Shown here in pieces: positions 12,897-62,492 of a stretch of DNA of 64,000 bases (position 1 is its first letter; each line of letters starts with the position of its first letter). The stretch is from the NCBI RefSeq assembly GCF_028369105.1, contig NZ_JAQNDO010000001.1:1971711-2035710 (forward strand). The letters run 5' to 3'. Both the position numbers and the translations under genes were made by a program. The notes beneath the pieces were generated by a model. It made no database searches. It worked only from the letters and a program-made list of their open reading frames with translations, and was not told where the DNA came from. Source of the DNA: Polyangium mundeleinium (GTDB lineage: Bacteria; Myxococcota_A; Polyangia; Polyangiales; Polyangiaceae).

Positions 12897-12924
12897 CGCG
12901 TCCGTCCCCTCTGCCTTCGTGGGC

Positions 12925-21222: not shown

Positions 21223-21411
21223 CGGGGAAACCTCCGGGACGGAACCATGACGAGACGAACGCGAAGGCGAACGCGAAGGGGGGATGCTCACATCCGCATG
21301 GGTTGATCAAGATATTTGTAGGCGGGCTGAGGATGTTCGCGGGGGCTATGCCAAGGGGACGGGCGGGATTGGCGTCCACGCCCGGGGCAACGTGAACGAG
21401 GTGCCGAGAGG

Positions 21412-21905: not shown

Positions 21906-22153
21906 TGCCGGGGGGGAGTCCCGTAATTACGGCAGTCGGAGTCCAAATGACGGCAGTCTGTACCGCCCTTTCACCCGCCCTCGACCCGCTCCCCTGAACA
22001 CGTGTGCTCGGATCGACCGTGATTGGCCCGGCTTGCCCGCGTCGGAGAGCGCGCCCGCGACGTCGCTCCTCCCGCTTGGATCGATCGGATGCGCGCGGTG
22101 GTCGTGGGATGTTGACAAGGCTCCCGGGGGTGACGTAAGCTGATATACGGGAC

Positions 22154-34512: not shown

Positions 34513-34513
34513 C

Positions 34514-35842: not shown

Positions 35843-35846
35843 GGGG

Positions 35847-39600: not shown

Positions 39601-40650
39601 AGCGGCGATCCCAACGTCTCGCTCTGGCAGAACGTCGCCTGGCCGCTCAAGGATTACGAAAACAAGAAGGCGGGCAACGGGGTCTCGAACCTGGAGACCT
39701 TCATGCTCTCCGACCTGCCGCTCATCACGGCGAAGAACTGCATCGCCGAGCTCGACAAACGCGCCGGCGTCGACGGCTCGGGCGGCTTTTTCGCGGGCAA
39801 ACAGAAGTACATCGTCGAGGAGCTGCGCGAGCGCTGCCGTGTCCTCGCGAGCGAGGAGATGCGGGATCGTTATGCCGCGCTCCGTCGCACCTTCAACCGT
39901 GAGCTCTCGGGCAAGTTCCCCTTCGTCAAGATCGAGCCGGGCATTCGCGTCGAGGACGCGCGCCCCGAGACCGTGCGGCGGTTCCTCCAGGACGCGGCCG
40001 ATTTCCGCTCCGATTTCGGGTATGTCCTCGGCAAGGACACGAAGGCCTCGGCCGGCGAGGTCGGGCGATTCCTCGAAAAGATCGAGGCCGTCCGCGCCTT
40101 CATGATGCCCATGTGGGCGCAGGTCGAGTCGGCCGAGGACGGCATCTACGACGTCAAGGTCGAGTTCCGCGTCAATCCCGCCCTCGAGGTCGGCGGCAAC
40201 CGCATCGCCGACTGGGCCATGCGGCTCGCGGACGAGCGCCTCTTCCGCGACGGCCCCAAGGCCGAAGCGAGCTGGCGCGTGAACGACCCCGTCCGCGTCG
40301 ATCTGCGCTGGGCGAAGAGCAGCCTCGACGTGCCGCTCTCGACGCAGGGCCCGAATGTCTTCGTGAACGATCGGACCGTCACGTTCGAGGAGCGCGGCCC
40401 CTGGGCGCTCTTGCGCATGATCGCGTTCCACCAGAGCTCCGCGCGTGACGGCTCGCAGAAGACCGAGGGCGGATCCCACGTGCTCGGCTTCGTCGTGCAA
40501 TCGTCGCCCGATCCGACGGGCGGCTTCATCGAGCGCGTCGGCACCGACGCCAACACCGTCCGTGTCTTCGTCCGCCTCGCGCTCACCGGCGTCGAGAAGG
40601 ACCGGATGCTCAGATACCCCGAGTTCCCCGCGATCGCTCCGAACCTTTAG
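36599..40650 (+). CDS. tssM: T6SS membrane protein TssM (IcmF-like), interrupted by an apparent -1/+1 frameshift near 37245-37255. This is either a sequencing error or a pseudogene.
   Basis: GTG start overlapping the tssL stop (GTGA). N-terminal TM plus Walker A 'GEPSSGKTT'. The conserved 'VYVVVTQ|DRLSGF' (cf. 'LVLTKADLLAGF') is split between frame 2 (36599 ORF) and frame 1 (36322 ORF). The IcmF body continues to 40650. Confidence 0.8.
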
Positions 40651-40664
40651 GAGACAGAGCCTCG

Positions 40665-41753
40665 ATGTCGACGAAGGCCCCGCTCATCGATCTGGAGACG
40701 CTTCTCCTGCCCATCTCCGAGGAGGCGCCTTGTGGCTCGTCTCTCCGGTACGAAGGCACGTACGACCGCGTGCGCGAGGCGCGTCGCGAGGACGATCCCT
40801 CGCTGCCCATGGGCGAATGGGAGACCAAGCTCAAGGTCGCCGACTTCGCGCTCGTGGACAAACTTTGCCAGGACGCGCTGCGCAAGAAATCGAAGGACCT
40901 CCAGATCGCGGCCTGGCTCGTCGAGGCCTGGCTCCGGCGCTCCCGCGTGAAGGGCCTCGGCCAGGGTTTGTCCCTCGTCGCCGGGCTCTGCGAGCGGTAC
41001 TGGGACGGCCTCTTCCCCGCGCTCGGCGACGACGCCGATGCCTCGGCGCGCGTCGCGCTTTACGAGTGGATGGACGACATCCTCTCGGATCGCCTGCGCC
41101 GCACGCCGTTCGGGGACGGCGACGGGGCGTTTTCGCTGCTCGATTGGGATCTCGGCGGACAGGCTGCGCCGCCCGACGGGGACGGCGAGGGCGCGCGGCC
41201 GACACGAGAATCGCTCCTCGCCAAGATCTCGCTCGGCGGCGCGGCGACGCGCTGGTCCGAGATCGCGCTCGACGCGGGCACGTCGATCATGGCGGCCGAG
41301 GCGGCCGAGGCGGCGATCGCGACGCACGTCCCGCGCCCGCCCACGCTCCGCCGCGTGCGGGAGGTCCTCGGGCAGATCGAGGTCCTCGCGCGTGACGCGG
41401 CGCGCATCAATGGCGAGAGTGTCCCGGAGGCGAGCGCGTCCGCGGCGAGCCCGCCGCCGCTCGGATCGGCTGCGGCGGCCGCGGCCGCGGCGGCGTTCAC
41501 GGCGCCGGGCGGGGGAGGGGGAGGCGGCGGCTCGTTTGCGATCGCGAGCCGCGCCGACGCTTATTATCGGCTCGCCGAGGCGGCCGAGTACCTCATGCGG
41601 ACCGAGCCGCACAGCCCGGTCCCATACCTGGTCAAACGTGCGGTGCAGTGGGGCAACATGTCGCTCGCCCAGCTCCTCTACGAGTTCGTGGGGAACCCCG
41701 ACGATCTCGTGGCGATACAGCGCTTGCTCGGGATGCGCGGGAGGGAGGAGTAA
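40665..41753 (+). CDS. tssA: T6SS protein TssA (ImpA N-terminal domain).
   Basis: N-terminal ImpA_N-like region 'ISEEAPCGSSLRYEGTYDRVREARREDD...LVDKLCQDALRKKSKDLQIAAWLVEAWLR'. Confidence 0.8.
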   Translation: MSTKAPLIDLETLLLPISEEAPCGSSLRYEGTYDRVREARREDDPSLPMGEWETKLKVADFALVDKLCQDALRKKSKDLQIAAWLVEAWLRRSRVKGLGQGLSLVAGLCERYWDGLFPALGDDADASARVALYEWMDDILSDRLRRTPFGDGDGAFSLLDWDLGGQAAPPDGDGEGARPTRESLLAKISLGGAATRWSEIALDAGTSIMAAEAAEAAIATHVPRPPTLRRVREVLGQIEVLARDAARINGESVPEASASAASPPPLGSAAAAAAAAAFTAPGGGGGGGGSFAIASRADAYYRLAEAAEYLMRTEPHSPVPYLVKRAVQWGNMSLAQLLYEFVGNPDDLVAIQRLLGMRGREE

Positions 41754-41927
41754 CCGGGGGGAAGGACCGGGAGCGGGAGGGAGCGAGCGCCCTCACGAGG
41801 GTGTTGTGTTGACGAGCCCGAGCACGGTAAAAGGGTAATGCCCAGGAGTACACGCCGTGCGCGGGCGGTTTTTCGGAGACTTCAAAAGCCGCGGCGTCGC
41901 CGCGAGAGCCGAGGAAGGGAGCCATCG

Positions 41928-42428
41928 ATGGCAGAGAGCAAGCAGCACTGGCTGGACCGAAACCGTCCGCCTCGTGTGCAGATCACGTACGACGTCGAGA
42001 CGGGCAACGCAATCGAGAAGAAAGAGATCCCGTTCGTGGTCGGCGTGTTGAGCGATCTGGGGCAGAACCCGGCGAATCCGCTGCCCAAGTTGAAGGAGCG
42101 CAAGTTCGTCGAGATCGACCGCGACAATTTCAACGACGTCCTCGCCTCGACGAAGCCGGAGATCACGGTGAAGGTCGACGACGTGATCAAGGGGGCGGGG
42201 AAGATCTCGATCCCGCTCACGTTCACGCACCTCGACGATTTCCGGCCCGAGCGCCTCGTCGAGCGCATCCCGGAGCTCCGCAAGCTGCTCCGCGCGCGCG
42301 AGCGCCTGAACGACCTCCTCGGCAAGCTCGAGGGCAACGACGAGCTCTCGGCGGCGCTGCGTGAGGTCATGGAGAGCACCGAGGCTCTCCAGAAGATCAC
42401 GGCGGAAGTTTCCAAGGATCAGAGCTAG
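41928..42428 (+). CDS. tssB: T6SS sheath small subunit TssB (VipA).
   Basis: About 166 aa. 'RVQITYDVETGNAIEKKEIPFVVGVLSDL' TssB signature. Confidence 0.9.
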   Translation: MAESKQHWLDRNRPPRVQITYDVETGNAIEKKEIPFVVGVLSDLGQNPANPLPKLKERKFVEIDRDNFNDVLASTKPEITVKVDDVIKGAGKISIPLTFTHLDDFRPERLVERIPELRKLLRARERLNDLLGKLEGNDELSAALREVMESTEALQKITAEVSKDQS

Positions 42429-42448
42429 GCCGCGCGGAGGGTACGAAC

Positions 42449-43951
42449 ATGCCGGAAACTACGAGCGTCAAGCAACTCATCGCCTCGAGCGCGGACGGCG
42501 GGGCGATCATCGATCAGATCCTCGCCGAGGGCGCGATGGTTCGGGGGGACAACCCCGTCCAGAAGAAGCACGCCCGCGACATCGTCGGAGAGTTCTGCCA
42601 GCAGATCCTCGACGAGCGGGATCCGAAGGACAAGCAGCGCGCCATTGATCTCGGCGCGGTGGCGGCCATTCAGGATCGCATCAACGAGATCGACGAGATC
42701 ATCGGCAAGCAGCTCGACGTGATCCTGCACGCGCCCGAGTTCCAGTATCTCGAAGCGCGGTGGCGGGGCCTGCACTACCTCGTCATGAACACGGAGACGA
42801 GCACGCGGCTCAAGATTCGCGTGATCAACGTCCGCAAGGACGAGCTCCGCAAGGATTTCGAGGCCTCGCCCGAGTTCGATCGCAGCTCGCTCTTCAAGAA
42901 GGTGTACGAGGAGGAGTACGGCACGTTTGGCGGCGCGCCCTACGGCCTGCTCCTCGGCGACTACGAGTTCGACGGTTCGAGCCCGGACGTCGGCCTCTTG
43001 ACCGAGCTTTCGAAGGTCGCGGCGGCGGCGCACGCGCCGTTCATCTCGGCGTCGAGCCCGTACCTCTTCGACATGGAGAACTTCGGCCAGATCGGCGTGC
43101 CCGGTGATCTCGCCAAGCTCTTCGAGAGCACGCAGCTCATCCAGTGGAAGGAGTTCCGCGAGACCGAGGACAGCCGTTACGTCGGCCTCGTCCTGCCGCA
43201 CGTCCTCATGCGCCTGCCCTATGGCCCGAAGGGCGTGCCGGTGGACGGCTTCATGTACGAGGAGAACGTCGGCGCGGAGGACAAGAACTTCCTCTGGGGC
43301 AACGCGGCGTATGCACTCGGCCAGCGGATCACGAACGCGTTCGCGCATTATGGCTGGTGCGCGGCGATCCGCGGCGTCGAGGGCGGCGGCCTCGTCGAGA
43401 ACCTCCCGGTGCACGTCTTCAAGACGAGCGAGGGTGATCTCGCGGTGAAGACCCCGACCGAGGTGGCGATCACCGATCGTCGCGAGAACGAGCTCTCCGA
43501 GCTCGGGTTCATCTCGCTCTGCTATCGCAAGAACAGCGGCCAGGCCGCGTTCTTCGGCGGCGCGACCGCGAACAAGCCCAAGGTGTACAACCTGCCCTCG
43601 GCGACGGCGAACGCCCGTCTCTCGGCGCAGCTCCCGTACATCATGGCGACGAGCCGGTTCGCCCATTACATCAAGGTCATGATGCGCGACAAGATCGGCA
43701 GCTTCATGACGAAGGACAACGTGTCGTCGTACCTCAACAACTGGATCGCGGACTACGTGCTCCTGAACGACGACGCGGGTCAGGACACGAAGGCGCGGCT
43801 GCCTTTGCGCGAGGCGCGGATCGACGTCACCGACGTTCCCGGCAAGCCGGGGGCGTACCGTGCCGTCGTTTTCTTGAAGCCGCACTTCCAGCTCAACGAG
43901 CTCACGGTCTCGATGCGCCTCGTGGCGGATCTTCCGCCTCCTGTGGCGTGA
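42449..43951 (+). CDS. tssC: T6SS sheath large subunit TssC (VipB).
   Basis: 500 aa. Conserved TssC blocks ('GGAPYGLLLGDYEF', 'WGNAAYA'). Confidence 0.9.
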   Translation: MPETTSVKQLIASSADGGAIIDQILAEGAMVRGDNPVQKKHARDIVGEFCQQILDERDPKDKQRAIDLGAVAAIQDRINEIDEIIGKQLDVILHAPEFQYLEARWRGLHYLVMNTETSTRLKIRVINVRKDELRKDFEASPEFDRSSLFKKVYEEEYGTFGGAPYGLLLGDYEFDGSSPDVGLLTELSKVAAAAHAPFISASSPYLFDMENFGQIGVPGDLAKLFESTQLIQWKEFRETEDSRYVGLVLPHVLMRLPYGPKGVPVDGFMYEENVGAEDKNFLWGNAAYALGQRITNAFAHYGWCAAIRGVEGGGLVENLPVHVFKTSEGDLAVKTPTEVAITDRRENELSELGFISLCYRKNSGQAAFFGGATANKPKVYNLPSATANARLSAQLPYIMATSRFAHYIKVMMRDKIGSFMTKDNVSSYLNNWIADYVLLNDDAGQDTKARLPLREARIDVTDVPGKPGAYRAVVFLKPHFQLNELTVSMRLVADLPPPVA

Positions 43952-44055
43952 CGGGCCTCGCAAATCAGTGTAGGGTATGATCAGGAAGTTACCGCCCCGC
44001 GCTCGAACGGAGCGCGCGGGCGGTGACCGTCGACGGGGACGCGGAGGAGTGAACG

Positions 44056-44550
44056 ATGGAAACGAGTTTTTTGGAGATTGAAGGCGTCAAGGGCGAGAGC
44101 ACGGCGAGCCAGGGCAAGGACAAGGTCGAGATCCTTTCCTTCAGCCACGGCGTCTCGATGCCCCTCACGGCGGGCGCCTCGGCGAACGCGCGTTCGCACG
44201 GCCGCACGGTTCATCAGGACTTCACGTTCAGCAAGTTCCTCGACATCACGTCGCCCACGCTGAACCTCAAGTGCAGCGGCGGCGACAACATCAAGAAGGC
44301 CGAGCTCACCGTCTTCCAGGCCGACAAGAACGACGGCGACATGGTCCTTTATTACAAGATCACGTTCGAGGACGTGATCCTGACGAACGTCTCGGTGAGC
44401 GGCGGCAGCGGCGGTCGTCCCATCGAGACGGTCACGTTCAACTACCGCAAGATCAAGTGGTCGTACGCCCAGCAGGGCCAGCCTTCGCCGGCCGGCAAGA
44501 AGGGCACGGCCGAGGCGGGTTGGACGCTCGAGGAGAACAAGAAGCTCTAA
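44056..44550 (+). CDS. hcp: Hcp (TssD) inner tube protein.
   Basis: 164 aa. 'FLEIEGVKGEST...KVEILSFSHGVSMP' Hcp1-family pattern. Confidence 0.9.
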   Translation: METSFLEIEGVKGESTASQGKDKVEILSFSHGVSMPLTAGASANARSHGRTVHQDFTFSKFLDITSPTLNLKCSGGDNIKKAELTVFQADKNDGDMVLYYKITFEDVILTNVSVSGGSGGRPIETVTFNYRKIKWSYAQQGQPSPAGKKGTAEAGWTLEENKKL

Positions 44551-44586
44551 CCCGAGGACGCTTCATCGTCCCAGGGGAACGACAGA

Positions 44587-45063
44587 ATGGCGAAGGCGTG
44601 GGGATCCACGAGCGCGGGCAGGGTTCCCCTGTTCGACCGGTTGGTCGACGAGAACCCTGCTCAAAAACAAGAAGCGGTCCCCTATTGCACCCTCGATCGA
44701 GACGGGCTGCGCGCCTCGGTGGCCCGCGAGCTCGGTCGAATCCTCGGCACCCGCAGCCCCATCTCCGGCGACGAGGCTCTCTCCCGGCAGCGCACGACCC
44801 TCGATTACGGTTTGCCCGACCTCGAGCTCGGCGGCCGTGCGCTCGTCCCGGAGGAGCTTCGCCGCCTCGTGCGCCTCGTGCAAAAGACGATCGAGGCGTA
44901 CGAGCCGAGGCTCCAGAACGTACGCGTGGAGATCAAACGACGCGAGGACGCGGCGCCGCATGCGCGCCTCGTGGTCGCGCTCTCGGCGACGCTCGTCACG
45001 GACGAGGTGCGTGAGCCGCTCTCCTTCGAGGCTCCGCTCGACGCGAGCCAGGGGGCCTTATGA
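44587..45063 (+). CDS. tssE: T6SS baseplate protein TssE (gp25-like).
   Basis: 158 aa. 'PLFDRLVDENP...' GPW/gp25 lysozyme-like fold pattern. Position hcp-tssE-tssF. Confidence 0.8.
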   Translation: MAKAWGSTSAGRVPLFDRLVDENPAQKQEAVPYCTLDRDGLRASVARELGRILGTRSPISGDEALSRQRTTLDYGLPDLELGGRALVPEELRRLVRLVQKTIEAYEPRLQNVRVEIKRREDAAPHARLVVALSATLVTDEVREPLSFEAPLDASQGAL

Positions 45064-46868
45064 GCAAGGGAGATCCCGATCGGGAGATGCTCGAGCTCTA
45101 TGCGCGCGAGCTCGCGTATCTGCGCGAGCGTGGCGCCGAGTTCGCGAAGGACTATCCGAAGATCGCGGCGCGCCTCGGTACCTCGAACCAGGCCTCGGCC
45201 GATCCCCACGTCGAGCGCCTCGTCGAGGCCTTTGCGTTCCTCTCGGCGCGCCTCACGCGGGACATCGAGGCCGAGCTGCCGATTTACACGACGTCGCTGC
45301 TCGGCACGCTGTATCCGCAGCTCGCGTGTCCCGTGCCGGCAATGGCGATCGCCGGGTTCGAGATCGACCCGAAGGAAGCCAAGCTCGGCTCCGGGTACAC
45401 GGTCGAGAAGCACACGCCGCTCTTCGCGGCCTCGCAGAGCGGCCCTGTTTGTTATTTTCGTACGGCGTTTCCGGTCACGCTCTGGCCGATCGAGATCGTC
45501 AATGCGGGCATGGTCCCGCCCGAGAACCTCGACGTCCCCTCGTGGCTGCTCACGAACGCCGCGGCGGCGCTCGAGATCGAGATCGCGACCGGCGGGGTGC
45601 CGCTCGACAAACTCGGCATGCGCTCGCTGCGCTTCCACATCGCGGGCGGCGGCATGGGCGCGGCGCGCCTCTACGATCTGCTCGCGGCGCACGCCGTGCA
45701 GGTCCTCGTGGTCGGGGAAAACCCCTCGCAAGATTGGACGTACGGCAAGATTCGCCCCGTCGGCTTCGAGGCGAACGAGGACGTCCTGCCGTATCCGCCG
45801 CACGCGCACCGCGGCCATCGCCTCGTGCAGGAGTATTTCGCGTTCCCGGAGAAGTTTCATTTCTTCGACATCGAGCTGCCGAAGCTCCCGCCGCGCAAGA
45901 ACGCGAAGATCCTGGTCCTCTTCGATCAGAAGCCGCCGGCCGGCGTCGCGGTCCGCCCGACGACGTTGAAGCTCGGCTGCACCCCGATCATCAACCTCTT
46001 CCCGCGCAGCGCCGAGCCCATCCGCGTCGATCACACGCGGCCCGAGTATCGCCTCGTCGCCGACGCGCGCCGCGAGCGGACCACCGAGGTCCATTCAATC
46101 ACGCGCGTCGCGGCCACCGCGCCCGGCGAGCCCAAGCAGGTCGACTACGCGCCGTTCTTTTCCTTCGTGCACCACCGCGCGGGCGAGCGGCCGCGCGCGT
46201 TCTGGCACGCGCGCCGCGTCGCCACGGGCCGCAAGGACCTGCCGGGCACCGACGTCTGGCTCACGTTCGTCGACACGGACTTCAAGCTCGCGCGTCCCCC
46301 GTCGGAGACCGTCTACGCCGGCGTCCTCTGCACGAACCGCGATCTCGCGAACGAGATCGCCAAGGACACGCAGCTCTCGCCCGAGCGCCCCGTCCCGGCG
46401 CGAAAAATCGTTTGTCTCACGAAACCGACCCCCCAGCGCGCCGCGCCCATGGGCGGCGAAGCGCTCTGGCGGCTCGTCTCGAACCTCTCGCAGAACCACC
46501 TCTCGATCACGGACGGCAAGACGGGCGTCGCGGCCCTGCGCGAGATCCTGCGCGCCTATGTCTTCGGCGACGCGCCCGACGCCGAGCGCCAGATCGACGC
46601 GCTCCTCGAAGTGTCGAGCCGCGTGGTCACGCGCCGCCTCGGCAGCGACGCGTGGCGGGGGTATTGCCGGGGCCTCGAGATCACGCTCACGCTCGCGGAC
46701 GAGCAGTTCGCCGGATCGAGCCCGGTCCTCTTGGCCTCGATCCTCAGCCGATTCTTCGCCTTACAGGCGCACATCAATGCGTTCACCGAGCTCGTGCTGA
46801 AGCGAGCATCGCGCGCGGAGGTCTGGAAACGATGGCCGCCCACGGCTGGCGAAAGAGCCCTTCTGTAG
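45060..46868 (+). CDS. tssF: T6SS baseplate protein TssF.
   Basis: 602 aa. ATGA overlap with tssE. TssF-like N-terminal region 'LELYARELAYLRERGAEFAKDYPKIAARLG'. Confidence 0.85.
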   Translation: MSKGDPDREMLELYARELAYLRERGAEFAKDYPKIAARLGTSNQASADPHVERLVEAFAFLSARLTRDIEAELPIYTTSLLGTLYPQLACPVPAMAIAGFEIDPKEAKLGSGYTVEKHTPLFAASQSGPVCYFRTAFPVTLWPIEIVNAGMVPPENLDVPSWLLTNAAAALEIEIATGGVPLDKLGMRSLRFHIAGGGMGAARLYDLLAAHAVQVLVVGENPSQDWTYGKIRPVGFEANEDVLPYPPHAHRGHRLVQEYFAFPEKFHFFDIELPKLPPRKNAKILVLFDQKPPAGVAVRPTTLKLGCTPIINLFPRSAEPIRVDHTRPEYRLVADARRERTTEVHSITRVAATAPGEPKQVDYAPFFSFVHHRAGERPRAFWHARRVATGRKDLPGTDVWLTFVDTDFKLARPPSETVYAGVLCTNRDLANEIAKDTQLSPERPVPARKIVCLTKPTPQRAAPMGGEALWRLVSNLSQNHLSITDGKTGVAALREILRAYVFGDAPDAERQIDALLEVSSRVVTRRLGSDAWRGYCRGLEITLTLADEQFAGSSPVLLASILSRFFALQAHINAFTELVLKRASRAEVWKRWPPTAGERALL

Positions 46869-47890
46869 AGGCCTGGCTCTTCGACGAGGGGCACGCGTTC
46901 GATTTTTATCAGGCCGTCTCCCTCCTCGAACACTGGCGCGAGGGCGACGCCGTCCCCGTCGGCGAAGGCTCCGATCCGTCGCGCGAGTCCGTGCGATTTG
47001 CCGGGAGCGTCGCGCTCGCCTTCCCCGAGACCGACGTCGCGCGTATTCGCCCGCCGCACCGCGAGGGCGAGCCTGCGAAGATGCTCGTGAACTTCCTCGG
47101 CCTCGGCGGCGCCCTCGGCCCGCTGCCGCCGCCCATCGTCGAGTCGATTTACATGCGCGCCGTCCGCGGCGACACCGCGGCGCGTGATTTCCTCGACATC
47201 TTCAACCACCGCCTCGTCTCGTTTGCTTATCGCATCCGCAAGGGCCACCGCGTCGGCCTCGGCGCCTCCTCGCCCGAGAAGGACGATGCGGCGCGGCACC
47301 TCTTCGCCCTGCTCGGCCTCGGCTTCAAGGCGCTCGAAGGCCGGCTCGCGGTCCAGGATCGGGCGCTCCTCGAGCACGCGGCGAACCTGGGGAGCGAGTC
47401 GCGCTCGCTCGAAGGCCTCGTCGCGATCCTCCGCCGGCATTTCGGCGTTCCCATCGAGCCCATCCCGCTCACCGGGGCCTTTCACCCGATCGAGGAGGCC
47501 GACCGCACGGCGATCGGCCGATCCGGCCAGAACCGCGCGCTCGGCCGTGACGCTTGCCTCGGGGGGCGTTTCTGGGATCAGGAGTCCACGTTCGATCTGC
47601 GCATCGGGCCCATGAAGCTCGATGAATTCCTTCGATTCCTCCCGGACGGCGACGCGCTCGGGCCTCTCTGCTCCCTCGTCCGTTTTTATGCAGGCGCACG
47701 ATTCCACTTCGGCCTCATCCTCGTCCTCGCCGAGCGCGAGGCGCCGCGGATCGAGCTCGGGAGCGCCACGTGCGCGCTCGTCGGCCAGATCGCCTGGCTC
47801 GGAAACGTGAACAAGAACGGCGGCAAGATCCGCGAGGTGCGTTTGTCCCGTGCGGCCATTCGGAAGGGGCTCGGCGAGGCGCCGGGCTGA
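46832..47890 (+). CDS. tssG: T6SS baseplate protein TssG.
   Basis: About 350 aa starting 'MAAHGWRKSPSVEAWLFDEGHAFDFYQAVSLLE'. The ATG overlaps the end of tssF. The listed 1017-aa ORF in this frame is an upstream read-through. Confidence 0.8.
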   Translation: MAAHGWRKSPSVEAWLFDEGHAFDFYQAVSLLEHWREGDAVPVGEGSDPSRESVRFAGSVALAFPETDVARIRPPHREGEPAKMLVNFLGLGGALGPLPPPIVESIYMRAVRGDTAARDFLDIFNHRLVSFAYRIRKGHRVGLGASSPEKDDAARHLFALLGLGFKALEGRLAVQDRALLEHAANLGSESRSLEGLVAILRRHFGVPIEPIPLTGAFHPIEEADRTAIGRSGQNRALGRDACLGGRFWDQESTFDLRIGPMKLDEFLRFLPDGDALGPLCSLVRFYAGARFHFGLILVLAEREAPRIELGSATCALVGQIAWLGNVNKNGGKIREVRLSRAAIRKGLGEAPG

Positions 47891-53047: not shown

Positions 53048-53437
53048 TCAGGGCACCTGGACCGTGACCTGCCCGGGGAACGAGATCTGAATCACGCCGC
53101 CCCACATACACATCAGCTTCGAGCTGTTGTTCAGCGCGGGCATGTTCGCCAGGAGCACCGTGGGTGCACCAACGATCCACGGCGCCGGCGTGTTCGGAAT
53201 GCACGGCATCGGCGTGAGCACGCCCATCGCCGCCGCCGTCGCCGCGGCCACCGTCGGGTTCGCCAGGCTCTGACACATCCCGAACGGCAGCACGTTCAGC
53301 ATCGGCTTGCCGTCCATGATGTTCGCCAGCGGTCCTGCGCTGTTCAACGTCCGGTTCGCGGGCAGCACCGTGAGCGAGCTCGGCGCCACGCCGAAGCTGC
53401 ATTGCATCATCGCGCCCATGCATACGTGCTGGCCCAT
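53048..53437 (-). CDS. PAAR-like DUF4280-family protein.
   Basis: 129 aa. 'CMGAMMQCSFGVAPSSLTVLP...LPFGMCQSLANPTVAAATAAAMGVLTPMPCIP...KLMCMWGGVIQI' matches the DUF4280 pattern. Located downstream of vgrG. Confidence 0.8.
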   Translation of the reverse strand: MGQHVCMGAMMQCSFGVAPSSLTVLPANRTLNSAGPLANIMDGKPMLNVLPFGMCQSLANPTVAAATAAAMGVLTPMPCIPNTPAPWIVGAPTVLLANMPALNNSSKLMCMWGGVIQISFPGQVTVQVP

Positions 53438-53439
53438 CG

Positions 53440-54192
53440 TCAGCCTCCCGCGAGCTTGTTCACGATCTTGTCGAAGAAGGACGTCTCCTTCTCCTCCTTC
53501 GACTTGGGAATGCCCTTGTCGTCGTACTCGACTTCGCCGCGCTTCTCGCCGTCCTTGTACGACGCCTTCGCCTTCAGCTTGCCTTGCACGTCGTAGCTGA
53601 ACGCGTCGCCTTGTTTCTTGCCGTTGTCGTACGTGGCGCGCTCGCGGACCTCGCCGTTCGGGAAGTACTCGATCACTTCCCCGTGCAGTTTGTCCGCCTT
53701 GTAGTTCGCTTTCCGCAGCGTGTTGCCCTTGCCGTCGAGGAACAAGGACTCGCCTTCGAGCTTGCCGTTCTTGTAGAACGACCGCACGACCTCGTTTCCC
53801 TGCTCATCGAACGACAGGAACGGGCCGTTCTGTTTGCCCTTCTCGAAATGCATCAGCGTCCGCAGCCGGCCCTCGTCGTAAAGACGCGTCGGCCCGTGCT
53901 GCTCGCCTTTCACGAACGTCACGATCTGCGAGATCTTGCCGTGCTCGTCGAAGAGCTTCGTCTCGCCGTGCAGCGCGCCGTTCTCGAAGGACGAACGCTC
54001 GACCTCGCGCCCCTCCGGGTCGTACGTGATCGACAGCCCGTGGAGCTTGCCCTTCGCGTAATTCGCCCGGTGCGCGATCTGCTTTTCGGTCTCCCCGTAC
54101 TGGACGAACTCCCCGTGCAGCTCGCCCTCTTCCATCTGGAACCGGGAGATCAGCTTGCCGGTTTCGTCGCGCTCTTCGTGGTCGGTCGGCAT
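53440..54192 (-). CDS. MORN-variant (YwqK-family) repeat protein, 250 aa, between vgrG and the PAAR-like gene.
   Basis: About 8 tandem 'G..HG....Y..NG.L' MORN_2-type repeats. The real start 'MPTDHEERDE' lies 12 nt after the vgrG stop; the 627-aa ORF in the track is an antisense/frame read-through of vgrG. Confidence 0.75.
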   Translation of the reverse strand: MPTDHEERDETGKLISRFQMEEGELHGEFVQYGETEKQIAHRANYAKGKLHGLSITYDPEGREVERSSFENGALHGETKLFDEHGKISQIVTFVKGEQHGPTRLYDEGRLRTLMHFEKGKQNGPFLSFDEQGNEVVRSFYKNGKLEGESLFLDGKGNTLRKANYKADKLHGEVIEYFPNGEVRERATYDNGKKQGDAFSYDVQGKLKAKASYKDGEKRGEVEYDDKGIPKSKEEKETSFFDKIVNKLAGG

Positions 54193-54203
54193 CGGGCCCT
54201 CGC

Positions 54204-56204
54204 TCAGTTGATCTTCACCATGCCGCCCTTCAACGTCAGCATGCCGCCGCCCTCCACCGCCGCCTGCGCGCCGCCCTTCGCCTTCAGCGCGATCGCGCCC
54301 TCGAGCGTCATGTTCGTCCCGCCCTTGGCCTTGAAATCGGTGCCGGCCTTCAGCGTCATCCCCGTCCCGGACTCGGCCTTGAAATCCGTGCCCGCCTTCA
54401 TCGTGAACGCCTGCTTGGCCTTGATCGTGACGCTCTTCGCCTCGATCACGAGGTCGCCGTCGACCTTGATCGTGTAGTTCTTCGTCACCTTGTAATCGAG
54501 GTTCGCCTTGTTCGTGTGCGCCTCGTCCTTGGTGATCTCCAGCGTGCGTTTGCCCTTCACGCTGTGCGTCTCGTCGCCCTTGTCGACCTTGATCGTGCGG
54601 TTGCCCTTGGTGACCGTGAGCGACTCGTCGCCCTCTTCGATCGTCACCTTCCGCTCGTTTTTGACGTTCTTCGTGTAATCGTGGAGGACCTTCACCGTCC
54701 AGTCGTTCTCCACCTCGAAGAGCATGTCCTTCTGGGCGTGCGCGTAGAACTCCTCGCTGTCCTTCTTGTCCTCGAAGCGCAATTCGTTCCCCGCGTCGCC
54801 CTCCTTCGTCGAGCGGCTCAGGATCGTGCTCTTCGTCTGCGCGCCCGGCAGCCCATAAGGCACCGTTTGCTCCGCGTTGTACACCGAGCCCGTCACGAGC
54901 GGCCGGTCCGGATCGCCGTCGATGAAGCTCACGACGACCTCTTGCCCGATGCGCGGCAAGAACCACGCGCCCCAGCTCTTGCCCGCCCAGGACTGCACGA
55001 CCCGCACGAAGCACGAGCTCTTGTCGTCCTTCGCGCCCTTGCGATCCCAGTGGAACTGGACCTTGATGCGCCCGTATTCGTCCGTCCACTGCTCCTCGCC
55101 GCTCTTGCCCACGACGACGGCCGTTTGCGTGCCGGGGATCGCGGGCTTCGGCGTGATGCGCGGCGGGCGGTACGGCGTCTTCTTCGGGAAGCCCTCGAAG
55201 GTATTCGTGTACCCCTCCTGGCTCGCCCGATGCACGACCGCGCCGAGGACCCAGTCGGTGTTCGCGTCGTCCCGATCGTGCTCGTCGAGCTTGAACGCGT
55301 GGCCCGCGGTGAAGGCGCGACAATTGGATGCGCCGGACAAACGCACCGCCCGCGCCTCCTCCGCTTCGATGCGGAGCTTCGCGCGCGCGTCGCCCGGGCT
55401 CTTCTCGATGTGCCCGCCCGGGTACTCGAAGAGCTCGAGCTTGCCGGATTCACCCGAGACCTCCGCGAGCAGCGACGTGCTCGGCATCTCGAAGTTGTAA
55501 TCCGTCGACGCGTACTTCCCCGCGACGATCTCTTCTTCGAGCGTGCACTCGACGACCGCGTCCTCGTCCGTCGACGACGAGAACTGCTCGACGAACCGCG
55601 CCTTGTCGAGGTTCGGGCACGGCACGGCCGACGCGCTGTCGTCGGTCAAGACCATCACGTGCTTGCCGTCCTCGTGCGTGAAATAATAGTGGATCCCCTC
55701 GTCCTCCATGAGACGCGACACGAAATCGAGCGCGGTCTCCTGGTACTGCACGCAGTAGGGGCGCGGCGCGTACGAGCCCTTCAGCGAATCCTTGAAGTGC
55801 TCGCCCGACGAGAAGCCGAGCTCCTGGAAGAGCGCCTTCAGGATGTCGGGTACGCTCTTCTCCTGGAAGATGCGGCAATCGCTGGTCTTGCCGAGGAGCC
55901 ACAACCACGGGTGCAGCTCCGCGCGGTAGCGTGTCTGCTTGCCGACGCGACCTGCCTGGACGAACCGCGTGCAGATCCCGTGGATGAAGCGCGGCTTCTC
56001 CTTGGCCATGCCCCGGATCGTCAAGGTCACGCCCTTGCCGACGATCGCCTTGAAGTCGAGCGCCTTTTCCGGCGACACGAGCTCGAGCTCGAAGCGGAAG
56101 AGCCCCGAGATCCGCTCTTCACCGTGCAGATCGACGAGCAGAACCGCATCCGCGCCGAAAGGCGTCGAGATGGCGATGCCGAGGCTGCCCTGCGGATAAG
56201 GCAT
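54204..56204 (-). CDS. vgrG: VgrG (TssI) spike protein.
   Basis: 666 aa with gp27-like and gp5-like regions ('RFIHGICTRF', 'WAGKSWGAWFLPRIGQEVVVSFIDGDPDRPLVTGSVYN'), and C-terminal beta-helix repeats 'TMKAGTDFKA...'. Confidence 0.9.
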   Translation of the reverse strand: MPYPQGSLGIAISTPFGADAVLLVDLHGEERISGLFRFELELVSPEKALDFKAIVGKGVTLTIRGMAKEKPRFIHGICTRFVQAGRVGKQTRYRAELHPWLWLLGKTSDCRIFQEKSVPDILKALFQELGFSSGEHFKDSLKGSYAPRPYCVQYQETALDFVSRLMEDEGIHYYFTHEDGKHVMVLTDDSASAVPCPNLDKARFVEQFSSSTDEDAVVECTLEEEIVAGKYASTDYNFEMPSTSLLAEVSGESGKLELFEYPGGHIEKSPGDARAKLRIEAEEARAVRLSGASNCRAFTAGHAFKLDEHDRDDANTDWVLGAVVHRASQEGYTNTFEGFPKKTPYRPPRITPKPAIPGTQTAVVVGKSGEEQWTDEYGRIKVQFHWDRKGAKDDKSSCFVRVVQSWAGKSWGAWFLPRIGQEVVVSFIDGDPDRPLVTGSVYNAEQTVPYGLPGAQTKSTILSRSTKEGDAGNELRFEDKKDSEEFYAHAQKDMLFEVENDWTVKVLHDYTKNVKNERKVTIEEGDESLTVTKGNRTIKVDKGDETHSVKGKRTLEITKDEAHTNKANLDYKVTKNYTIKVDGDLVIEAKSVTIKAKQAFTMKAGTDFKAESGTGMTLKAGTDFKAKGGTNMTLEGAIALKAKGGAQAAVEGGGMLTLKGGMVKIN

Positions 56205-58739: not shown

Positions 58740-61700
58740 TCACATGGGCTTCTTGATGTTCCGGTACTTCGTCTTGCCGTTCGCGTCGCTGTAGGCTTCG
58801 AGGATCTCTTTGCGGTTCGTCCCGGTGGTGTACGAGACGTGCACCCAGCGGTTGAATTCGAAGATCACCTGATCGAAGGGCATCTTCGATTCGAACGCGA
58901 TGTAGTTGAAGACCTCCTTCACGGTCTTGCCGGAGACCTTGAAATCGGCGGCCTCGCCCTTCACGTGTTGCGACGTCGTCGATCCGCCGATGGCGGTGTT
59001 CAGCTTCTCGCAACGGAAGCCGCTGGAGACGGCGACAGAGGCGCCGAAATGCGCGCGGACCTTCTCCAGCACGTTGTCGCAGAGCGCCTTCATGGCTGCG
59101 ATCTCGGAGGCCTTGGGCGTGTTCTTGATGCCCTTCTTGTCGGCCGTCGAGGAGGCGATGAACTCGGCGAGCGTGAAATGCTCGCTGAGCTTCCCGTCGG
59201 TCACGTTGCCGTCGTACTTCTTTCCGCCGCCCGACGAGCTGGACGAGGAGCTGGACGACGAACTCGACGACGACGAGCTGCTCGTGTTCGACGAGCTCTG
59301 CGAGCCCGTGCTCGACGACGTTTGCGAGCTCGTATTCGACGACGTTTGCGAGCTCGTCGACGAACTCGACGACGACTGCGCGCTCGACGATGCCGCCGGC
59401 TGCGGGGCTGCCTCGCCGCTCGCCAGCGCGACGCGGTAGAGGAACGTGATCGGGTTGTAATGCCAGACCTTGGGGCTCGCGGGCAGCGGGACCTTCTTCC
59501 CTTGCGCCTCCTGCCACCAGATCGAGGGCTTCAGCCGATCCTCGAGCCCCCACGTGTTGAACCGGCCCTTCATCGCCGGGATCGCCTTCGACAGATCCAC
59601 GGCCCACTCGCTGATGAAGCGGCACGCATAGTTGCGCAGGTCCCGCGACTTGGGGTTCGTCTTGTAGAAACGGTGCAGCTCGTCGACGCTGAGGATCTCG
59701 TTCTCGTCGTAGAAGCTCCACGAGACCTCGTCCTGCTCCACCATCTTCAGGATGGCGTCGCAGTCCATGTTGAAATCGTCGTCCATGTCCTCGACCTTCT
59801 TGGCCCAGGGCAGCACGAACTCCTCCGAGAAGATCTCCCAGTGGACCATGCCGGTCCGCGCGCCGGTCGAGCCATACAGGCCCGACACCCAGAGCACGTC
59901 ACCCGTCTCCACCTCGCGATCGACCTTCGCCACGACGCCCTTGTCGAGCTCCTTCACGAGCGCCGCGTCGAGCTCGACGCCGCCATTGCCCGCCGGCGGC
60001 GGCGGCTGGCAGAGCTTGCCCCACGTCGTCCCGCCCGGATCCACGCGGCCGTCCGGCTTCTTCGCCCACGCCGACTGGAACGTCTTGATCGCGTCCTTCG
60101 TCGCCTGATCACAGGCGTCCTGGATCGCGCCCTTGTATTTGCCGTGCTTCTGCAGCCGCGTCTGCACCTTGCGGACGTCGGCCGCCTTGTTGATCCCGCC
60201 CTCGCCCACGGAGGCGGAGATCGTGTCCGTCGACGCCGGCTCTGTCGCGGGCTTCGGCGCGTGGAGCCATTTCACCGCCTTGAAGAGCTCGTTCGAGCCG
60301 TCGAACTTCACGGCCCCGAGGTGCATGTAGAGCGACCAGAACTTGTATTGCTTCTTCTCGTCGAGCTTCGGGAACGTGACCGCTTCGTGGTACGACTGGA
60401 ACCAGTCGCCCTTCACCGCGACATATCCCTTTTTCCCCTTCAGCGCCGCGTCCGCCGAGCGCGTCACCGTCACCTGGGCCCAGACGAACCCGTCCGCCGA
60501 GGTGTACTTGTCCGTGACGAGGTCGACGCGGTCGCCTTCCTTCAGCACGCCGACCTTGTCGGCCGATTTCGTGGCCTTCGCCCGCACGTTCACGTCCTGC
60601 GTGGCGCGATAGCCGATCACCTTGCCGCGCGGGGCCGTCTTGTTCAGCGTCGCCCCGTCGATCTCGTGCTGGAGCAGCACGAAGCTCATGCTGCCGTAAT
60701 GCGTGATCGCCTTCTTCGGGTCCGAGGGCAAACGCGCCGCGATGACCTTCCCCTTGTAAGGCGCCACGACCTGCGTCCCCTCGGCCACGTGCAGGTGCAC
60801 GCCGCCATGCCAGACCGTGTTCGCGCCGAGCGGGTAATACCCGCCTTTGCTCTCGACCTCGGTGTGCGCGTAGTACGCCGCCGCGTTCTCGGGCGAGGCG
60901 ACGCGCGAGTCCTTCAGCGCCACGGGGAAGCTTATCGGCGTGCGCCGCGGGCTCAGCGCGTCACCCTCGACGAGCGTGTAAATGATCGAGCGCGTCCCGT
61001 CCTTGCTCGCCTTCGGCGACAGCTCGTTCGTCGTCGTGTTCTTGAGCGAGTGATCCGTCTCGAGGAGCTGGATGAAGCGCAGGTAGTTCGCCATCCCCGA
61101 GAGGACCTGGCAGCCCTCGGACCACGCGCCCGCGCGATCCTCGGCGACCGTGTTCTTCTCGCCGCCGTAATGGATGTTGATCGACGCGTTGTCGTGCGTG
61201 CTCGCCGCGCTCTCGCCGACGGCGCCGACGTTGCTCGCGTCCGTGATGCGCGTGCACTTCACGTGCGGATCCGGGTTCAGCGCGCGATAGCCGAACCCCT
61301 TGATGTCCGCGTACGCCTTCACGCCCACGAGCGGTTTGTACTCCCTGTCCTTCTTGTGCACGGCCAGCTTGTACTTGTGCTGGCCGAGCAGGATGACGGC
61401 CGACGCGCCCGCCGACGTCCACTCCGTCGTGCACTGGAACTTCGAGACGGCTTTCTTGCCGTCCTTCTTGTAGATCAGGAAGAGGCAATCGTCGTATTTC
61501 GTGTTCGTGCTCGGGACGGGCACCATCGTGTCGAACTCGAACCCGCGCGCGCCGAGGAGGTTCATGCGGCCCTCCTCGTCCTGGAAATCGAACTCCGCCT
61601 TGCCCTCGTTGCCGAACCGCTTCTGCGAGCGCTTCCACACGTCGCGCAGGTGATCGTAGAGCTGCTCCTGCGAGAAGTTCTTCAGGTCGAACGTGGTCGT

Positions 61701-62492
61701 CGGCTCGCGGAGGATCACCTGATCGCTCGGGCCCGAGCTCGTGCTCTGGCTCTGGCCTTTCCCGCCGCAAAGGATGAAGAGCTGGTAGCGCGCGCCGAGC
61801 GTCAACCGCGAGTGGTCCTTCACCCAGGACTCCTTCGCGGCCGTCTCCCAGTTCTTCTCCTTGATGGCCTTGTTCATATTCTTGAACTTGTCGAGGCCGG
61901 AGTTGCCGACCGCGAAGGCCAGGTTGATGACGAGCGCCCAGGCGATGGCCGGGTAATCGAGGTAGCCGCCCTCGTGCTGCTTCGTGTTCGGATACGCGGT
62001 GTTGAACAGCGAGTCCGCCTTCGACTTCATCACCTCCGTGCACTTCTTCCGCGCCGTCTCCGTGCTGATCTGGCACTTCATCAGCGAGGCGTACTTCGAG
62101 GCGATCGGTGGTTTGTCGCTGTGGTCGTTGAAATGATCCTTCGCGGCGTCCCAGTCTTTTTTCTTGTCGGACGCGGAGGCCGCGGCGCCCGTGCTCTTCA
62201 ACGTCATCGGCAGGCTGTCGAGCGCGCTCTTCGCGCTGCCATCGAGCAGGAGGCCAATGCCGATCGTCACGAGCCCGAGGTGATCGCAGTACATGTGCGT
62301 CAGGCAGCCCTCGAACCGCCCCGCGAGCAGCGCGGCGATCTCCAGGCACTTCGCCGCGCCCACGTCGCGCACCGTCTTCCCGACGTACGGCGACACGTCT
62401 GCCCACACCGCGTCGAGCTCCCCCTGCGTGCAGACGCCGCCCTTGTCGGACGTGAGCTTGTCGGTGATGTACTTGTCGAGCTTCAGGGTCAT
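58740..62492 (-). CDS. Giant (1250 aa) multi-domain peptidoglycan hydrolase: N-terminal GH24 (T4-lysozyme-like) domain, a possible Cys-His domain, an M23/LytM-like peptidase domain, a PG_binding_1 domain, a Ser/Gly-rich linker and a C-terminal peptidase M15A (zinc D-Ala-D-Ala carboxypeptidase-like) domain. No signal peptide; candidate T6SS cargo effector.
   Basis: 'FEGCLTHMYCDHLGLVTIGIG' lysozyme motif. 'GGVHLHVAEGTQVVAPYKGKVIAA...HYGSMSFVLLQHE...SLYMHLG' is M23-like. 'VRKVQTRLQKHGKYKGAIQDACDQATKDAIKTFQ' is PG-binding. 'SQHVKGEAADF' is the M15 SxHxxGxAxD motif. Confidence 0.8.
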   Translation of the reverse strand: MTLKLDKYITDKLTSDKGGVCTQGELDAVWADVSPYVGKTVRDVGAAKCLEIAALLAGRFEGCLTHMYCDHLGLVTIGIGLLLDGSAKSALDSLPMTLKSTGAAASASDKKKDWDAAKDHFNDHSDKPPIASKYASLMKCQISTETARKKCTEVMKSKADSLFNTAYPNTKQHEGGYLDYPAIAWALVINLAFAVGNSGLDKFKNMNKAIKEKNWETAAKESWVKDHSRLTLGARYQLFILCGGKGQSQSTSSGPSDQVILREPTTTFDLKNFSQEQLYDHLRDVWKRSQKRFGNEGKAEFDFQDEEGRMNLLGARGFEFDTMVPVPSTNTKYDDCLFLIYKKDGKKAVSKFQCTTEWTSAGASAVILLGQHKYKLAVHKKDREYKPLVGVKAYADIKGFGYRALNPDPHVKCTRITDASNVGAVGESAASTHDNASINIHYGGEKNTVAEDRAGAWSEGCQVLSGMANYLRFIQLLETDHSLKNTTTNELSPKASKDGTRSIIYTLVEGDALSPRRTPISFPVALKDSRVASPENAAAYYAHTEVESKGGYYPLGANTVWHGGVHLHVAEGTQVVAPYKGKVIAARLPSDPKKAITHYGSMSFVLLQHEIDGATLNKTAPRGKVIGYRATQDVNVRAKATKSADKVGVLKEGDRVDLVTDKYTSADGFVWAQVTVTRSADAALKGKKGYVAVKGDWFQSYHEAVTFPKLDEKKQYKFWSLYMHLGAVKFDGSNELFKAVKWLHAPKPATEPASTDTISASVGEGGINKAADVRKVQTRLQKHGKYKGAIQDACDQATKDAIKTFQSAWAKKPDGRVDPGGTTWGKLCQPPPPAGNGGVELDAALVKELDKGVVAKVDREVETGDVLWVSGLYGSTGARTGMVHWEIFSEEFVLPWAKKVEDMDDDFNMDCDAILKMVEQDEVSWSFYDENEILSVDELHRFYKTNPKSRDLRNYACRFISEWAVDLSKAIPAMKGRFNTWGLEDRLKPSIWWQEAQGKKVPLPASPKVWHYNPITFLYRVALASGEAAPQPAASSSAQSSSSSSTSSQTSSNTSSQTSSSTGSQSSSNTSSSSSSSSSSSSSSSSSGGGKKYDGNVTDGKLSEHFTLAEFIASSTADKKGIKNTPKASEIAAMKALCDNVLEKVRAHFGASVAVSSGFRCEKLNTAIGGSTTSQHVKGEAADFKVSGKTVKEVFNYIAFESKMPFDQVIFEFNRWVHVSYTTGTNRKEILEAYSDANGKTKYRNIKKPM

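Follow-up and report, generated by a model that had tools for sequence, protein, structure and literature searches.

We have found that three adjacent genes of Polyangium mundeleinium are the T6SS spike-tip operon of a Polyangium-type myxobacterium, and that the middle gene, which codes for a protein of MORN_2 repeats, corresponds both in position and in sequence to tseF (PA2374) of Pseudomonas aeruginosa. The original prediction saw in this gene a distinct adaptor or effector class. Its counterpart has already been described, and the Polyangium protein thus adds a member to a module already known rather than defining a class of its own. By analogy with TseF we lean towards the view that the locus is an H3-like T6SS spike operon whose TseF-family MORN_2 protein is exported as VgrG-bound cargo.

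Organization of the spike operon

The features of the window (the whole 64,000-nt stretch of DNA that was analyzed) on which the argument draws are as follows.

34496..47890 (+) T6SS core cluster tssK-tssL-tssM-tssA-tssB-tssC-hcp-tssE-tssF-tssG (Pfam, each gene)
53048..53437 (-) DUF4280 (PAAR-like) tip protein, 129 aa (PF14107)
53440..54192 (-) TseF-family MORN_2 repeat protein, 250 aa (PF07661)
53444..53449 (-) GGGAGG Shine-Dalgarno-like motif, 6 nt 5' of the DUF4280 ATG (sequence reading)
54197..54201 (-) GAGGG Shine-Dalgarno-like motif, 4 nt 5' of the MORN ATG (sequence reading)
54204..56204 (-) vgrG (tssI), 666 aa (Pfam and TIGR03361)
58740..62492 (-) candidate cargo effector, 1250 aa, with SH3_3, PG_binding_1 and C-terminal Peptidase_M15_3 domains (Pfam)

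The original prediction had placed the three spike genes on the minus strand at these positions, as is borne out here, but its intergenic gaps of 12 and 3 nt become, on reading the sequence, 11 nt between vgrG and the MORN gene and 2 nt between the MORN and DUF4280 genes. Third-position GC is high in all three ORFs, as in real genes, within a window of ~69% GC. The GAGGG motif sits in the 11-nt gap past the vgrG stop, and the GGGAGG motif falls within the 3' end of the MORN gene, a placement that fits translational coupling.

VgrG contains the Pfam domains Phage_GPD (E 5.5e-97), Phage_base_V (1.5e-15) and Gp5_trimer_C (5.2e-25) and scores 606.4 bits against TIGR03361 (cut-off 186), with both gp27-like and gp5-like domains present. 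Its C-terminus is a beta-helical repeat region, and a Pfam search found no C-terminal effector domain. Pfam likewise upholds the domain assignments first made for the two smaller proteins, with the DUF4280 protein matching PF14107 (E 1.5e-35, 122.5 bits; cut-off 26.3) and the MORN protein matching PF07661 (MORN_2; E 4.7e-18, 63.6 bits; cut-off 29.6).

The DUF4280 protein has no N- or C-terminal extension, is 99% identical to a multispecies Polyangium protein, and matches IglG (NF041248), a PAAR-like protein of Francisella, below threshold. It is strikingly hydrophobic, and its identity across phyla is 62-68% as against 27-31% for the MORN protein; five cysteines are invariant across 33 relatives. 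The AlphaFold2 model, made from a shallow alignment, has a mean pLDDT of 34.7, and a PDB sequence search returned nothing significant (top matches PsaR, E 0.07, and the eCIS tip SalCis10, E 0.11). There are no MORN-DUF4280 fusions among the best 120 of 8000 DUF4280 relatives, all of which stand alone at ~128 aa.

The spike operon and the T6SS core cluster are convergent, and a tblastn search with a ClpV protein found clpV to be absent from the window. The 1250-aa hydrolase, in whose N-terminal sequence no signal peptide was found, is by genomic context a candidate cargo of the spike operon. The homologous giant protein beside vgrG-MORN-DUF4280 in other Polyangium strains ends in Peptidase_M74 or without a recognized domain.

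Properties of the MORN_2 protein

Pfam detects no domain besides MORN_2 in the middle protein, and DUF4123, DUF1795 and DUF2169 are all without a match. The AlphaFold2 model (mean pLDDT 88.9) has 19 beta-strands across residues 3-223, which make up a region of beta-hairpin repeats, followed by a predicted short amphipathic C-terminal helix (residues 239-247, FFDKIVNKL). MORN1 proteins and junctophilin rank best when the fold of this model is compared with the PDB, and by sequence the PDB matches are all MORN domains of eukaryotes (SET7/9, MORN4), with no structure of TseF among them. A signal peptide is absent, the N-terminus (MPTDHEERDE...) being charged and without a hydrophobic leader.

Comparison with two other Polyangium genomes gives a dN/dS of 0.13-0.18, and the MORN gene is thus under purifying selection; the protein is 90-94% conserved across Polyangium strains. 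Such constancy beside a giant hydrolase that is swapped is more in keeping with an accessory part than with a polymorphic effector. No family-wide trend in charge is seen among MORN members, whose pI ranges from 4.9 to 9.4. We also asked, by comparing VgrG lengths, whether a longer beta-helix of VgrG provides the docking site for the sheet of MORN repeats. VgrG length is unrelated to the presence or length of the MORN protein, at 612-689 aa for VgrGs with a MORN protein and 612-639 aa for those abutting DUF4280.

Correspondence to the tseF locus of P. aeruginosa

The locus is orthologous to the vgrG3–tseF(PA2374)–PA2375 locus of the P. aeruginosa H3-T6SS, in which tssI, a 178-aa 'YwqK family' protein and DUF4280 follow tssF-tssG-tssH and precede lldA. 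The VgrG is 44% identical to P. aeruginosa VgrG3 over its full length, and the DUF4280 protein is 65% identical to the tseF-adjacent DUF4280 protein. The MORN protein itself is 28% identical to TseF over 158 aa (BLASTP, E 4e-18), and comparison of the two profiles by hhalign gives a probability of 99.2% (E 6e-20). Because repeat proteins inflate E-values, and generic MORN_2 proteins at 24-29% identity occur in unrelated contexts, the orthology to TseF rests mainly on synteny. TepB, considered as an alias of TseF, was rejected, being the product of an M91 peptidase gene on the opposite side of vgrG3 from tseF.

TseF has been reported to be a secreted H3-T6SS effector that binds VgrG3, and its homologues mostly co-localize with vgrG (Lin et al. 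2017, PMC5379069). Its release requires clpV3, hsiB3C3 and hcp3, it has been found in culture supernatants, and GST-TseF retains VgrG3 (PMC5379069). A 2025 review nevertheless calls the activity of TseF 'contentious' (PMC12133291).

Conservation of the arrangement

We anchored the survey of loci on DUF4280, of which the species-representative genomes contain more than 587 genes (PAAR_H); a five-sequence MORN alignment had no conserved stretch. The original prediction would have failed had the arrangement been unique to P. mundeleinium, but the order vgrG–MORN_2–DUF4280 recurs in 18 of the 80 genome loci with the closest DUF4280 relatives, in Myxococcota, Acidobacteriota, Alphaproteobacteria, Gemmatimonadota and one Melioribacteraceae MAG. 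The trio is also contiguous in Paraburkholderia and Cupriavidus replicons, three plasmid loci coming in addition to the 18 genome loci, and it has been noted in Paraburkholderia phymatum (PMC8356804) and Pseudomonas fluorescens (PMC7970981). Every one of 23 slot proteins matches PF07661, and -1 to 46 nt separate vgrG from the MORN gene in all but 2 of 23 loci (window included). The MORN gene remains with vgrG where DUF4280 is inverted, as in P. aeruginosa and in Azospirillum, where vgrG and the MORN gene are together and DUF4280 lies ~1.6 kb downstream on the opposite strand.

The slot is not always filled by a MORN gene. In 8 loci with the same VgrG type vgrG and DUF4280 abut, and in 2 loci (Chromatium okenii and Sedimenticola) the slot holds DUF4123, in agreement with the earlier statement that adaptors are found between vgrG and the tip gene. 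These exceptions indicate that the MORN protein serves as an accessory or as cargo and does not belong to the core. In a comparison of 19 loci, no family of toxins or effectors is conserved beside the module; the recurrent neighbors are T6SS core genes upstream and, downstream, only a protein with TM and SPOR domains, with transporter genes downstream in the beta-proteobacterial loci. The MORN protein is thus the operon's only non-structural product.

Role of the MORN_2 protein

In the mechanism that we favor, VgrG would form the trimeric spike, with the PAAR-like DUF4280 protein as its cap. The MORN_2 protein, a small all-beta repeat protein made in the cytoplasm, would be co-translated with the spike proteins and attach directly to VgrG. 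On sheath contraction it would leave on the spike and act outside the producer, its most likely target being a component of the envelope or of vesicles to which it binds. We infer that T6SS-dependent release and VgrG binding extend from P. aeruginosa TseF to the Polyangium protein. The binding of PQS and outer membrane vesicles by TseF and its part in FptA/OprF iron uptake are probably not transferable.

It is possible, if on balance unlikely, that the MORN protein is not a payload and instead binds and covers the hydrophobic cone of DUF4280, or the place where VgrG and DUF4280 join, until the system fires. DUF2169 does likewise for DUF4150 'PIPY' tips, and the order vgrG-X-PAAR-like corresponds to DUF2169 'synteny type B' (PMC11883445). 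The hydrophobicity and extreme conservation of DUF4280 (with its far higher cross-phylum identity than the MORN protein) would suit such a role, as would the constancy of the MORN protein in Polyangium strains whose nearby effectors vary. Among the 80 loci with the closest DUF4280 relatives, 49 encode a MORN-type protein no more than 2.5 kb away from DUF4280, including 26 Paenibacillaceae eCIS, in which the MORN gene directly follows DUF4280, and 5 eCIS of Clostridia/Bacillota. An outer-membrane-vesicle or iron function makes no sense in Gram-positive eCIS loci, which counts against a TseF-type role. However, the eCIS proteins are 530-760 aa long and give better matches to canonical MORN (PF02493) than to MORN_2, and may represent a separate recruitment of the repeat. 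A chaperone would also not be obligatory, as the MORN gene is absent from the 8 loci in which vgrG abuts DUF4280; in the split loci of P. aeruginosa and Azospirillum the MORN gene stays by vgrG and not by DUF4280; and TseF is reported in supernatants (PMC5379069). That MORN proteins also neighbor near-identical DUF4280 genes in the eCIS of Firmicutes goes beyond the literature that we searched. We would put forward only tentatively, and with some doubt, the broader proposal that MORN proteins are general partners of DUF4280-tipped systems, both T6SS and eCIS, serving as a chaperone or co-factor in the manner of DUF2169–DUF4150; were it true, the iron/PQS role of TseF would be a species-specific addition or a side effect.

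Two further roles appear less probable. A non-secreted adaptor that loads cargo, here the 1250-aa peptidoglycan hydrolase, onto VgrG as DUF4123 (Tap/Tec) proteins do would occupy an equivalent slot, and in all Polyangium relatives examined the operon has a giant polymorphic hydrolase linked to it, in two arrangements. We nevertheless judge this improbable: the 19 loci share no effector family beside the module, the beta-proteobacterial loci have transporters downstream, and the hydrolase always comes with its own p288/p515-family genes, which are better candidates for adaptor or immunity proteins. The idea that the protein is a YwqK-type immunity protein or antitoxin against a toxin sent by the same T6SS, hinted at in the original prediction, is very improbable indeed. 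In Bacillus subtilis YwqK confers immunity to the LXG toxin YwqJ, and the family name (RefSeq 'toxin-antitoxin system YwqK family antitoxin') is all that speaks for this role. The hint proves to be annotation transfer, since the gene in the tseF position is likewise named 'YwqK family antitoxin' and there is no conserved toxin neighbor; given the similar generic MORN_2 proteins in unrelated contexts, the YwqK name carries no functional information. By Pfam, a toxin domain is absent from VgrG, DUF4280 and all conserved neighbors in the 19 loci, and the MORN protein has no signal peptide, although the candidate effector close by, a peptidoglycan hydrolase, acts in the periplasm.

The reading as VgrG-bound cargo remains the one that we prefer. 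Taken alone, the locus merely enlarges the TseF family by one member from a myxobacterium and is of minor importance. The comparison across genomes is of more use: the trio is found in several phyla in which PQS production is not expected, and MORN proteins occur also beside near-identical DUF4280 genes in Gram-positive eCIS. This comparative pattern offers a concrete test of a disputed family, between an envelope-binding cargo and the chaperone of a second non-canonical spike tip.

Comparison with known systems

YwqK of B. subtilis (COG2849) shares with the window protein only the name of the MORN_2-type repeat family, the relation being at the level of the repeat, and unlike it the window gene belongs to a Gram-negative T6SS spike operon without an adjacent toxin. 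DUF4123 proteins can occupy the identical slot between vgrG and the same DUF4280 subfamily, as in C. okenii and Sedimenticola, but have no sequence or fold relation to the MORN protein; moreover, a cognate effector gene normally follows DUF4123, and none is conserved after the MORN module.

The pairing of DUF2169 with DUF4150 (PIPY) shares the order of vgrG, accessory and PAAR-like gene, and in both cases one accessory family co-occurs strongly with one PAAR-like family (PMC11883445). The folds and families are nevertheless unrelated, the window protein having no DUF2169 match; the MORN-DUF4280 pairing is not strict, in contrast to DUF2169-DUF4150, as the 8 loci without a MORN gene demonstrate; and a MORN homologue is reported to be secreted. 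In Francisella the PAAR-like tip is likewise a DUF4280 protein, IglG, which acts together with IglF (PMC5014421), although the N-terminal extension of IglG is absent from the window DUF4280 protein.

TeoL (Reut_A1725) is a Cupriavidus necator T6SS1 effector that binds LPS and recruits outer membrane vesicles, and its gene directly follows vgrG1 (A1726) and clpV1 (A1727) (PMC8776902). The published tags (hcp1 A1731, tssM1 A1715) fit gene for gene a Cupriavidus locus of our survey (L004), which has the order hcp-tssE-F-G-clpV-vgrG-MORN-DUF4280-...-tssK-L-M. We infer from this gene-order arithmetic only that TeoL is a MORN_2 protein; PMC8776902 does not describe it as a TseF homologue, and none of the 6 relatives from the protein search for TeoL is a sequence of strain JMP134.

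With respect to TseF, the window protein is longer (250 aa as against 178 aa, or about three extra repeats), has the FFDKIVNKL-type C-terminal helix, and lies beside a DUF4280 gene that, unlike its P. aeruginosa counterpart, is not inverted. Its host is a myxobacterium, in which the PQS ligand is not expected; according to PMC8776902, no bacteria other than P. aeruginosa and its close relatives produce PQS, the ligand of TseF. The two proteins are nonetheless alike in consisting of MORN_2 repeats only, in having no signal peptide, and in being encoded directly after orthologous vgrG genes with orthologous DUF4280 genes adjacent.

The spike operon

The window has a GC content of ~69%, with genuine reading frames marked by third-position GC, and contains three consecutive genes on the minus strand:

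54204-56204, minus strand: vgrG, 666 aa, with Phage_GPD, Phage_base_V and Gp5_trimer_C domains (TIGR03361, 606 bits)
53440-54192, minus strand: MORN protein gene, 250 aa, with MORN_2 as the sole Pfam match (E 4.7e-18)
53048-53437, minus strand: DUF4280 gene, 129 aa (DUF4280, E 1.5e-35)

The reading frames and the Pfam matches to MORN_2 and DUF4280 bear out the three-gene arrangement of the original prediction. Its gap lengths of 12 and 3 nt are wrong: the MORN start codon lies 11 nt past the vgrG stop codon, and the DUF4280 gene begins 2 nt beyond the MORN gene. A Shine-Dalgarno-like motif lies ahead of each of the two downstream start codons. Domain matches place no C-terminal effector domain on the window VgrG, and comparison of the DUF4280 protein with the Francisella PAAR-like protein IglG gives only a sub-threshold match.

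AlphaFold2 models the MORN protein with confidence (mean pLDDT 88.9), as 19 beta-strands within residues 3-223 followed by a short C-terminal helix; the closest solved structures are MORN1 proteins and junctophilin. The protein starts with a charged N-terminus and lacks a signal peptide. A dN/dS of 0.13-0.18 indicates that the gene is under purifying selection.

Genomic surroundings

The other features of the window considered here are:

18047-21946, minus strand: 1299-aa protein with PLD-like and VWD domains
34496-47890, plus strand: T6SS core cluster (tssK, L, M, A, B, C, hcp, tssE, F, G)
48109-51915, plus strand: 1268-aa protein directly after tssG, with weak apolipoprotein-like helical repeats and a proline-rich tail
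56320-57186 and 57183-58730, plus strand: two paralogous genes, p288 and p515, upstream of vgrG and divergent from it
58740-62492, minus strand (as vgrG): 1250-aa giant hydrolase with SH3_3, PG_binding_1 and C-terminal Peptidase_M15_3 domains

The core cluster and the spike operon converge. Whereas proteobacterial relatives have the order tssG-clpV-vgrG, in the window tssG is followed by the 1268-aa protein, and clpV/tssH was not found anywhere in the 64 kb. Other Polyangium genomes conserve the first 873 residues of the 1268-aa protein at 93%, but neither its tail nor the 353-aa gene that follows it (51980-53041). The 1299-aa protein adjoins three giant TPR-repeat proteins of 1463-1750 aa (2472-18033).

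The giant hydrolase lacks a signal peptide and seems to be polymorphic. Its homologues in other Polyangium strains (L087-L089) keep the N-terminal and middle parts at 42-59% identity and end in Peptidase_M74 or, in a 1707-aa form, have no recognised domain. Genes of the p288/p515 family, which share an N-terminal region unlike any known family and have no family match, accompany the giant protein every time (window and L087-L089).

The window comes from a Polyangium species: its DUF4280 protein shares 99% identity with a multispecies Polyangium protein, and several Polyangium genomes have the same locus. In a syntenic metagenome contig (L001, ENA contig_85825) vgrG, the MORN gene and other genes are in fragments, probably through long-read frameshift errors; because of this fragmentation the MORN protein has a single close relative in the database, a 158-aa piece.

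Conservation and divergence of the arrangement

The arrangement is not unique to this genome. When plasmids and chromids were searched by tblastn with the MORN protein, the best matches were in Azospirillum, Paraburkholderia and Cupriavidus, and all four loci lie inside tssB-C-hcp-E-F-G-clpV clusters. The match in Paraburkholderia and Cupriavidus begins 8 nt after vgrG (42% identical to the window protein), and DUF4280 (66-68% identical) comes directly after it. The Azospirillum match lies 1 nt after vgrG (45% identical), but there DUF4280 (62% identical) is encoded on the other strand, ~1.6 kb further downstream.

We also took one genome per species, anchored a scan on the well-conserved DUF4280 protein, and searched the best 80 loci with a MORN-protein profile and the window T6SS proteins, calling genes by simple ORF rules.

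Contexts of the 80 DUF4280 loci, which are the nearest relatives of one protein, a non-random set with many phylogenetically related members
vgrG–MORN_2–DUF4280 contiguous: 18/80 (Polyangium, Minicystis, Vicinamibacterales, Pyrinomonadaceae, Thermoanaerobaculia, Stellaceae, Gemmatimonadota, a Melioribacteraceae MAG and others)
vgrG abutting DUF4280, no gene between: 8/80 (Acidobacteriota)
DUF4123 adaptor between vgrG and DUF4280: 2/80 (Chromatium okenii, L031 5446-5973; Sedimenticola MAG, L051 4966-5547)
eCIS (contractile injection loci other than T6SS), MORN protein within 2.5 kb: 31/80 (Firmicutes)
Contig ends after DUF4280, unclassified: 1/80 (Paenibacillaceae, L074)
Other contexts: 20/80 (various)

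All 23 proteins encoded in the slot after vgrG, those of the window and P. aeruginosa included, match PF07661 and are 178-256 aa long, and at 21 of these 23 loci vgrG and the MORN gene are separated by -1 to 46 nt. Eight loci have the same kind of VgrG and DUF4280 protein but no MORN gene, which therefore does not belong to the core of the module. At all depths compared DUF4280 diverges slowest and the MORN protein fastest, with VgrG between them.

Identity to the window proteins (DUF4280; VgrG; MORN)
Other Polyangium strains (L087-L089): 99%; 95-96%; 90-91%
Minicystis: 81%; 59%; 48%
Proteobacteria: 62-68%; 41-45%; 27-31%

Role of the MORN protein

The original prediction hinted at an antitoxin, from the YwqK-type annotation. 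This explanation fails: the operon contains no toxin domain, no toxin neighbour is conserved in the 19 loci compared, and the MORN protein lacks an export signal. An adaptor role for one specific effector has weak support: the only recurrent downstream gene in the loci compared encodes a membrane-anchored SPOR-domain protein, and the next genes in beta-proteobacteria are transporters. At least 16 T6SS loci (among them L010, L015, L072, L035, L047, L056, L060 and L063), some with a MORN gene and some without, have this SPOR protein just after DUF4280. Its N-terminus carries a transmembrane segment and its C-terminus the SPOR domain, which binds peptidoglycan. The window lacks such a gene, and in beta-proteobacteria a ~90-aa protein has a similar N-terminus but no SPOR domain.

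DUF2169 chaperones the DUF4150 tip in the gene order vgrG–DUF2169–DUF4150 (PMC11883445), and for this reason a similar partnership of the MORN protein with the DUF4280 tip is a reasonable rival, albeit one we consider rather unlikely. DUF4280 tips are already known from both T6SS and eCIS (PMC8651086), and MORN-repeat proteins recur beside DUF4280 genes (~70% identical to that of the window) in loci outside T6SS; our literature search found no paper linking MORN repeats with eCIS. At 26 Paenibacillaceae loci (L009-L078) DUF4280 is followed at once by a 530-760-aa MORN (PF02493) protein, with an eCIS_core protein next and an AAA ATPase nearby in the one scanned with Pfam (Brevibacillus, L016). 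Five Clostridia/Bacillota loci (L040, L042, L044, L075, L079) have a ~540-600-aa MORN protein upstream of DUF4280, with a Pvc16_N protein between the two in the scanned L079. However, these eCIS proteins, in which the N-terminal and repeat regions are conserved and the middle is variable, belong to the canonical MORN family and may have been recruited independently. The pairing is also not strict, and the MORN gene remains with vgrG where DUF4280 is inverted (Azospirillum, P. aeruginosa).

In the reading with the best support, the MORN protein would be cargo: co-produced with the spike proteins, it would bind VgrG and exit the cell on the spike. The binding and secretion steps are borrowed from P. 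aeruginosa TseF (PA2374), where GST-TseF retains VgrG3 and VgrG1b, and clpV3, hsiB3C3 and hcp3 are needed for release (PMC5379069). Three facts fit a PQS- or iron-specific effector awkwardly: the module extends to several phyla not expected to make PQS, MORN–DUF4280 pairs occur in eCIS loci, and the MORN protein is constant among Polyangium strains in which the catalytic end of the adjoining giant hydrolase is M15_3, M74 or none recognised.

Relationship to known systems

Our analysis establishes the anatomy and orthology of the MORN gene. Compared with the P. aeruginosa locus (vgrG3–tseF–PA2375), VgrG is 44% identical over its full length, DUF4280 65% and the MORN protein 28% (E 4e-18). A slot-protein profile matches TseF at 99.2% probability. 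Repeats inflate scores of both kinds, and generic MORN_2 proteins of similar identity also occur in unrelated contexts; the orthology is therefore supported chiefly by the flanking genes, both of them orthologous. In a 91-kb P. aeruginosa sequence filed as a plasmid (NZ_CP137515.1), which may be a misassigned chromosomal segment, the H3-T6SS end has the order tssF, tssG, tssH, hypothetical, M91 peptidase, tssI, 178-aa 'YwqK family antitoxin', inverted DUF4280 and, further on, lldA.

TseF homologues occur in diverse bacteria, mostly co-localised with vgrG (PMC5379069), and in the T6SS-b locus of Paraburkholderia phymatum vgrG has been described as preceding genes for a 'YwqK family antitoxin' and a 'PAAR-like protein', in that order (PMC8356804). 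The Cupriavidus necator teoL gene lies directly after vgrG1 and clpV1 (PMC8776902); the published locus tags fit our Cupriavidus locus gene for gene, and from this gene order alone we infer that TeoL is the counterpart of the MORN protein there. The value of these findings is modest and lies in the comparative pattern, not in the window locus by itself. The original interpretation is partly right but not new: rather than a distinct class, the window locus is a member of the known vgrG–TseF–DUF4280 module.
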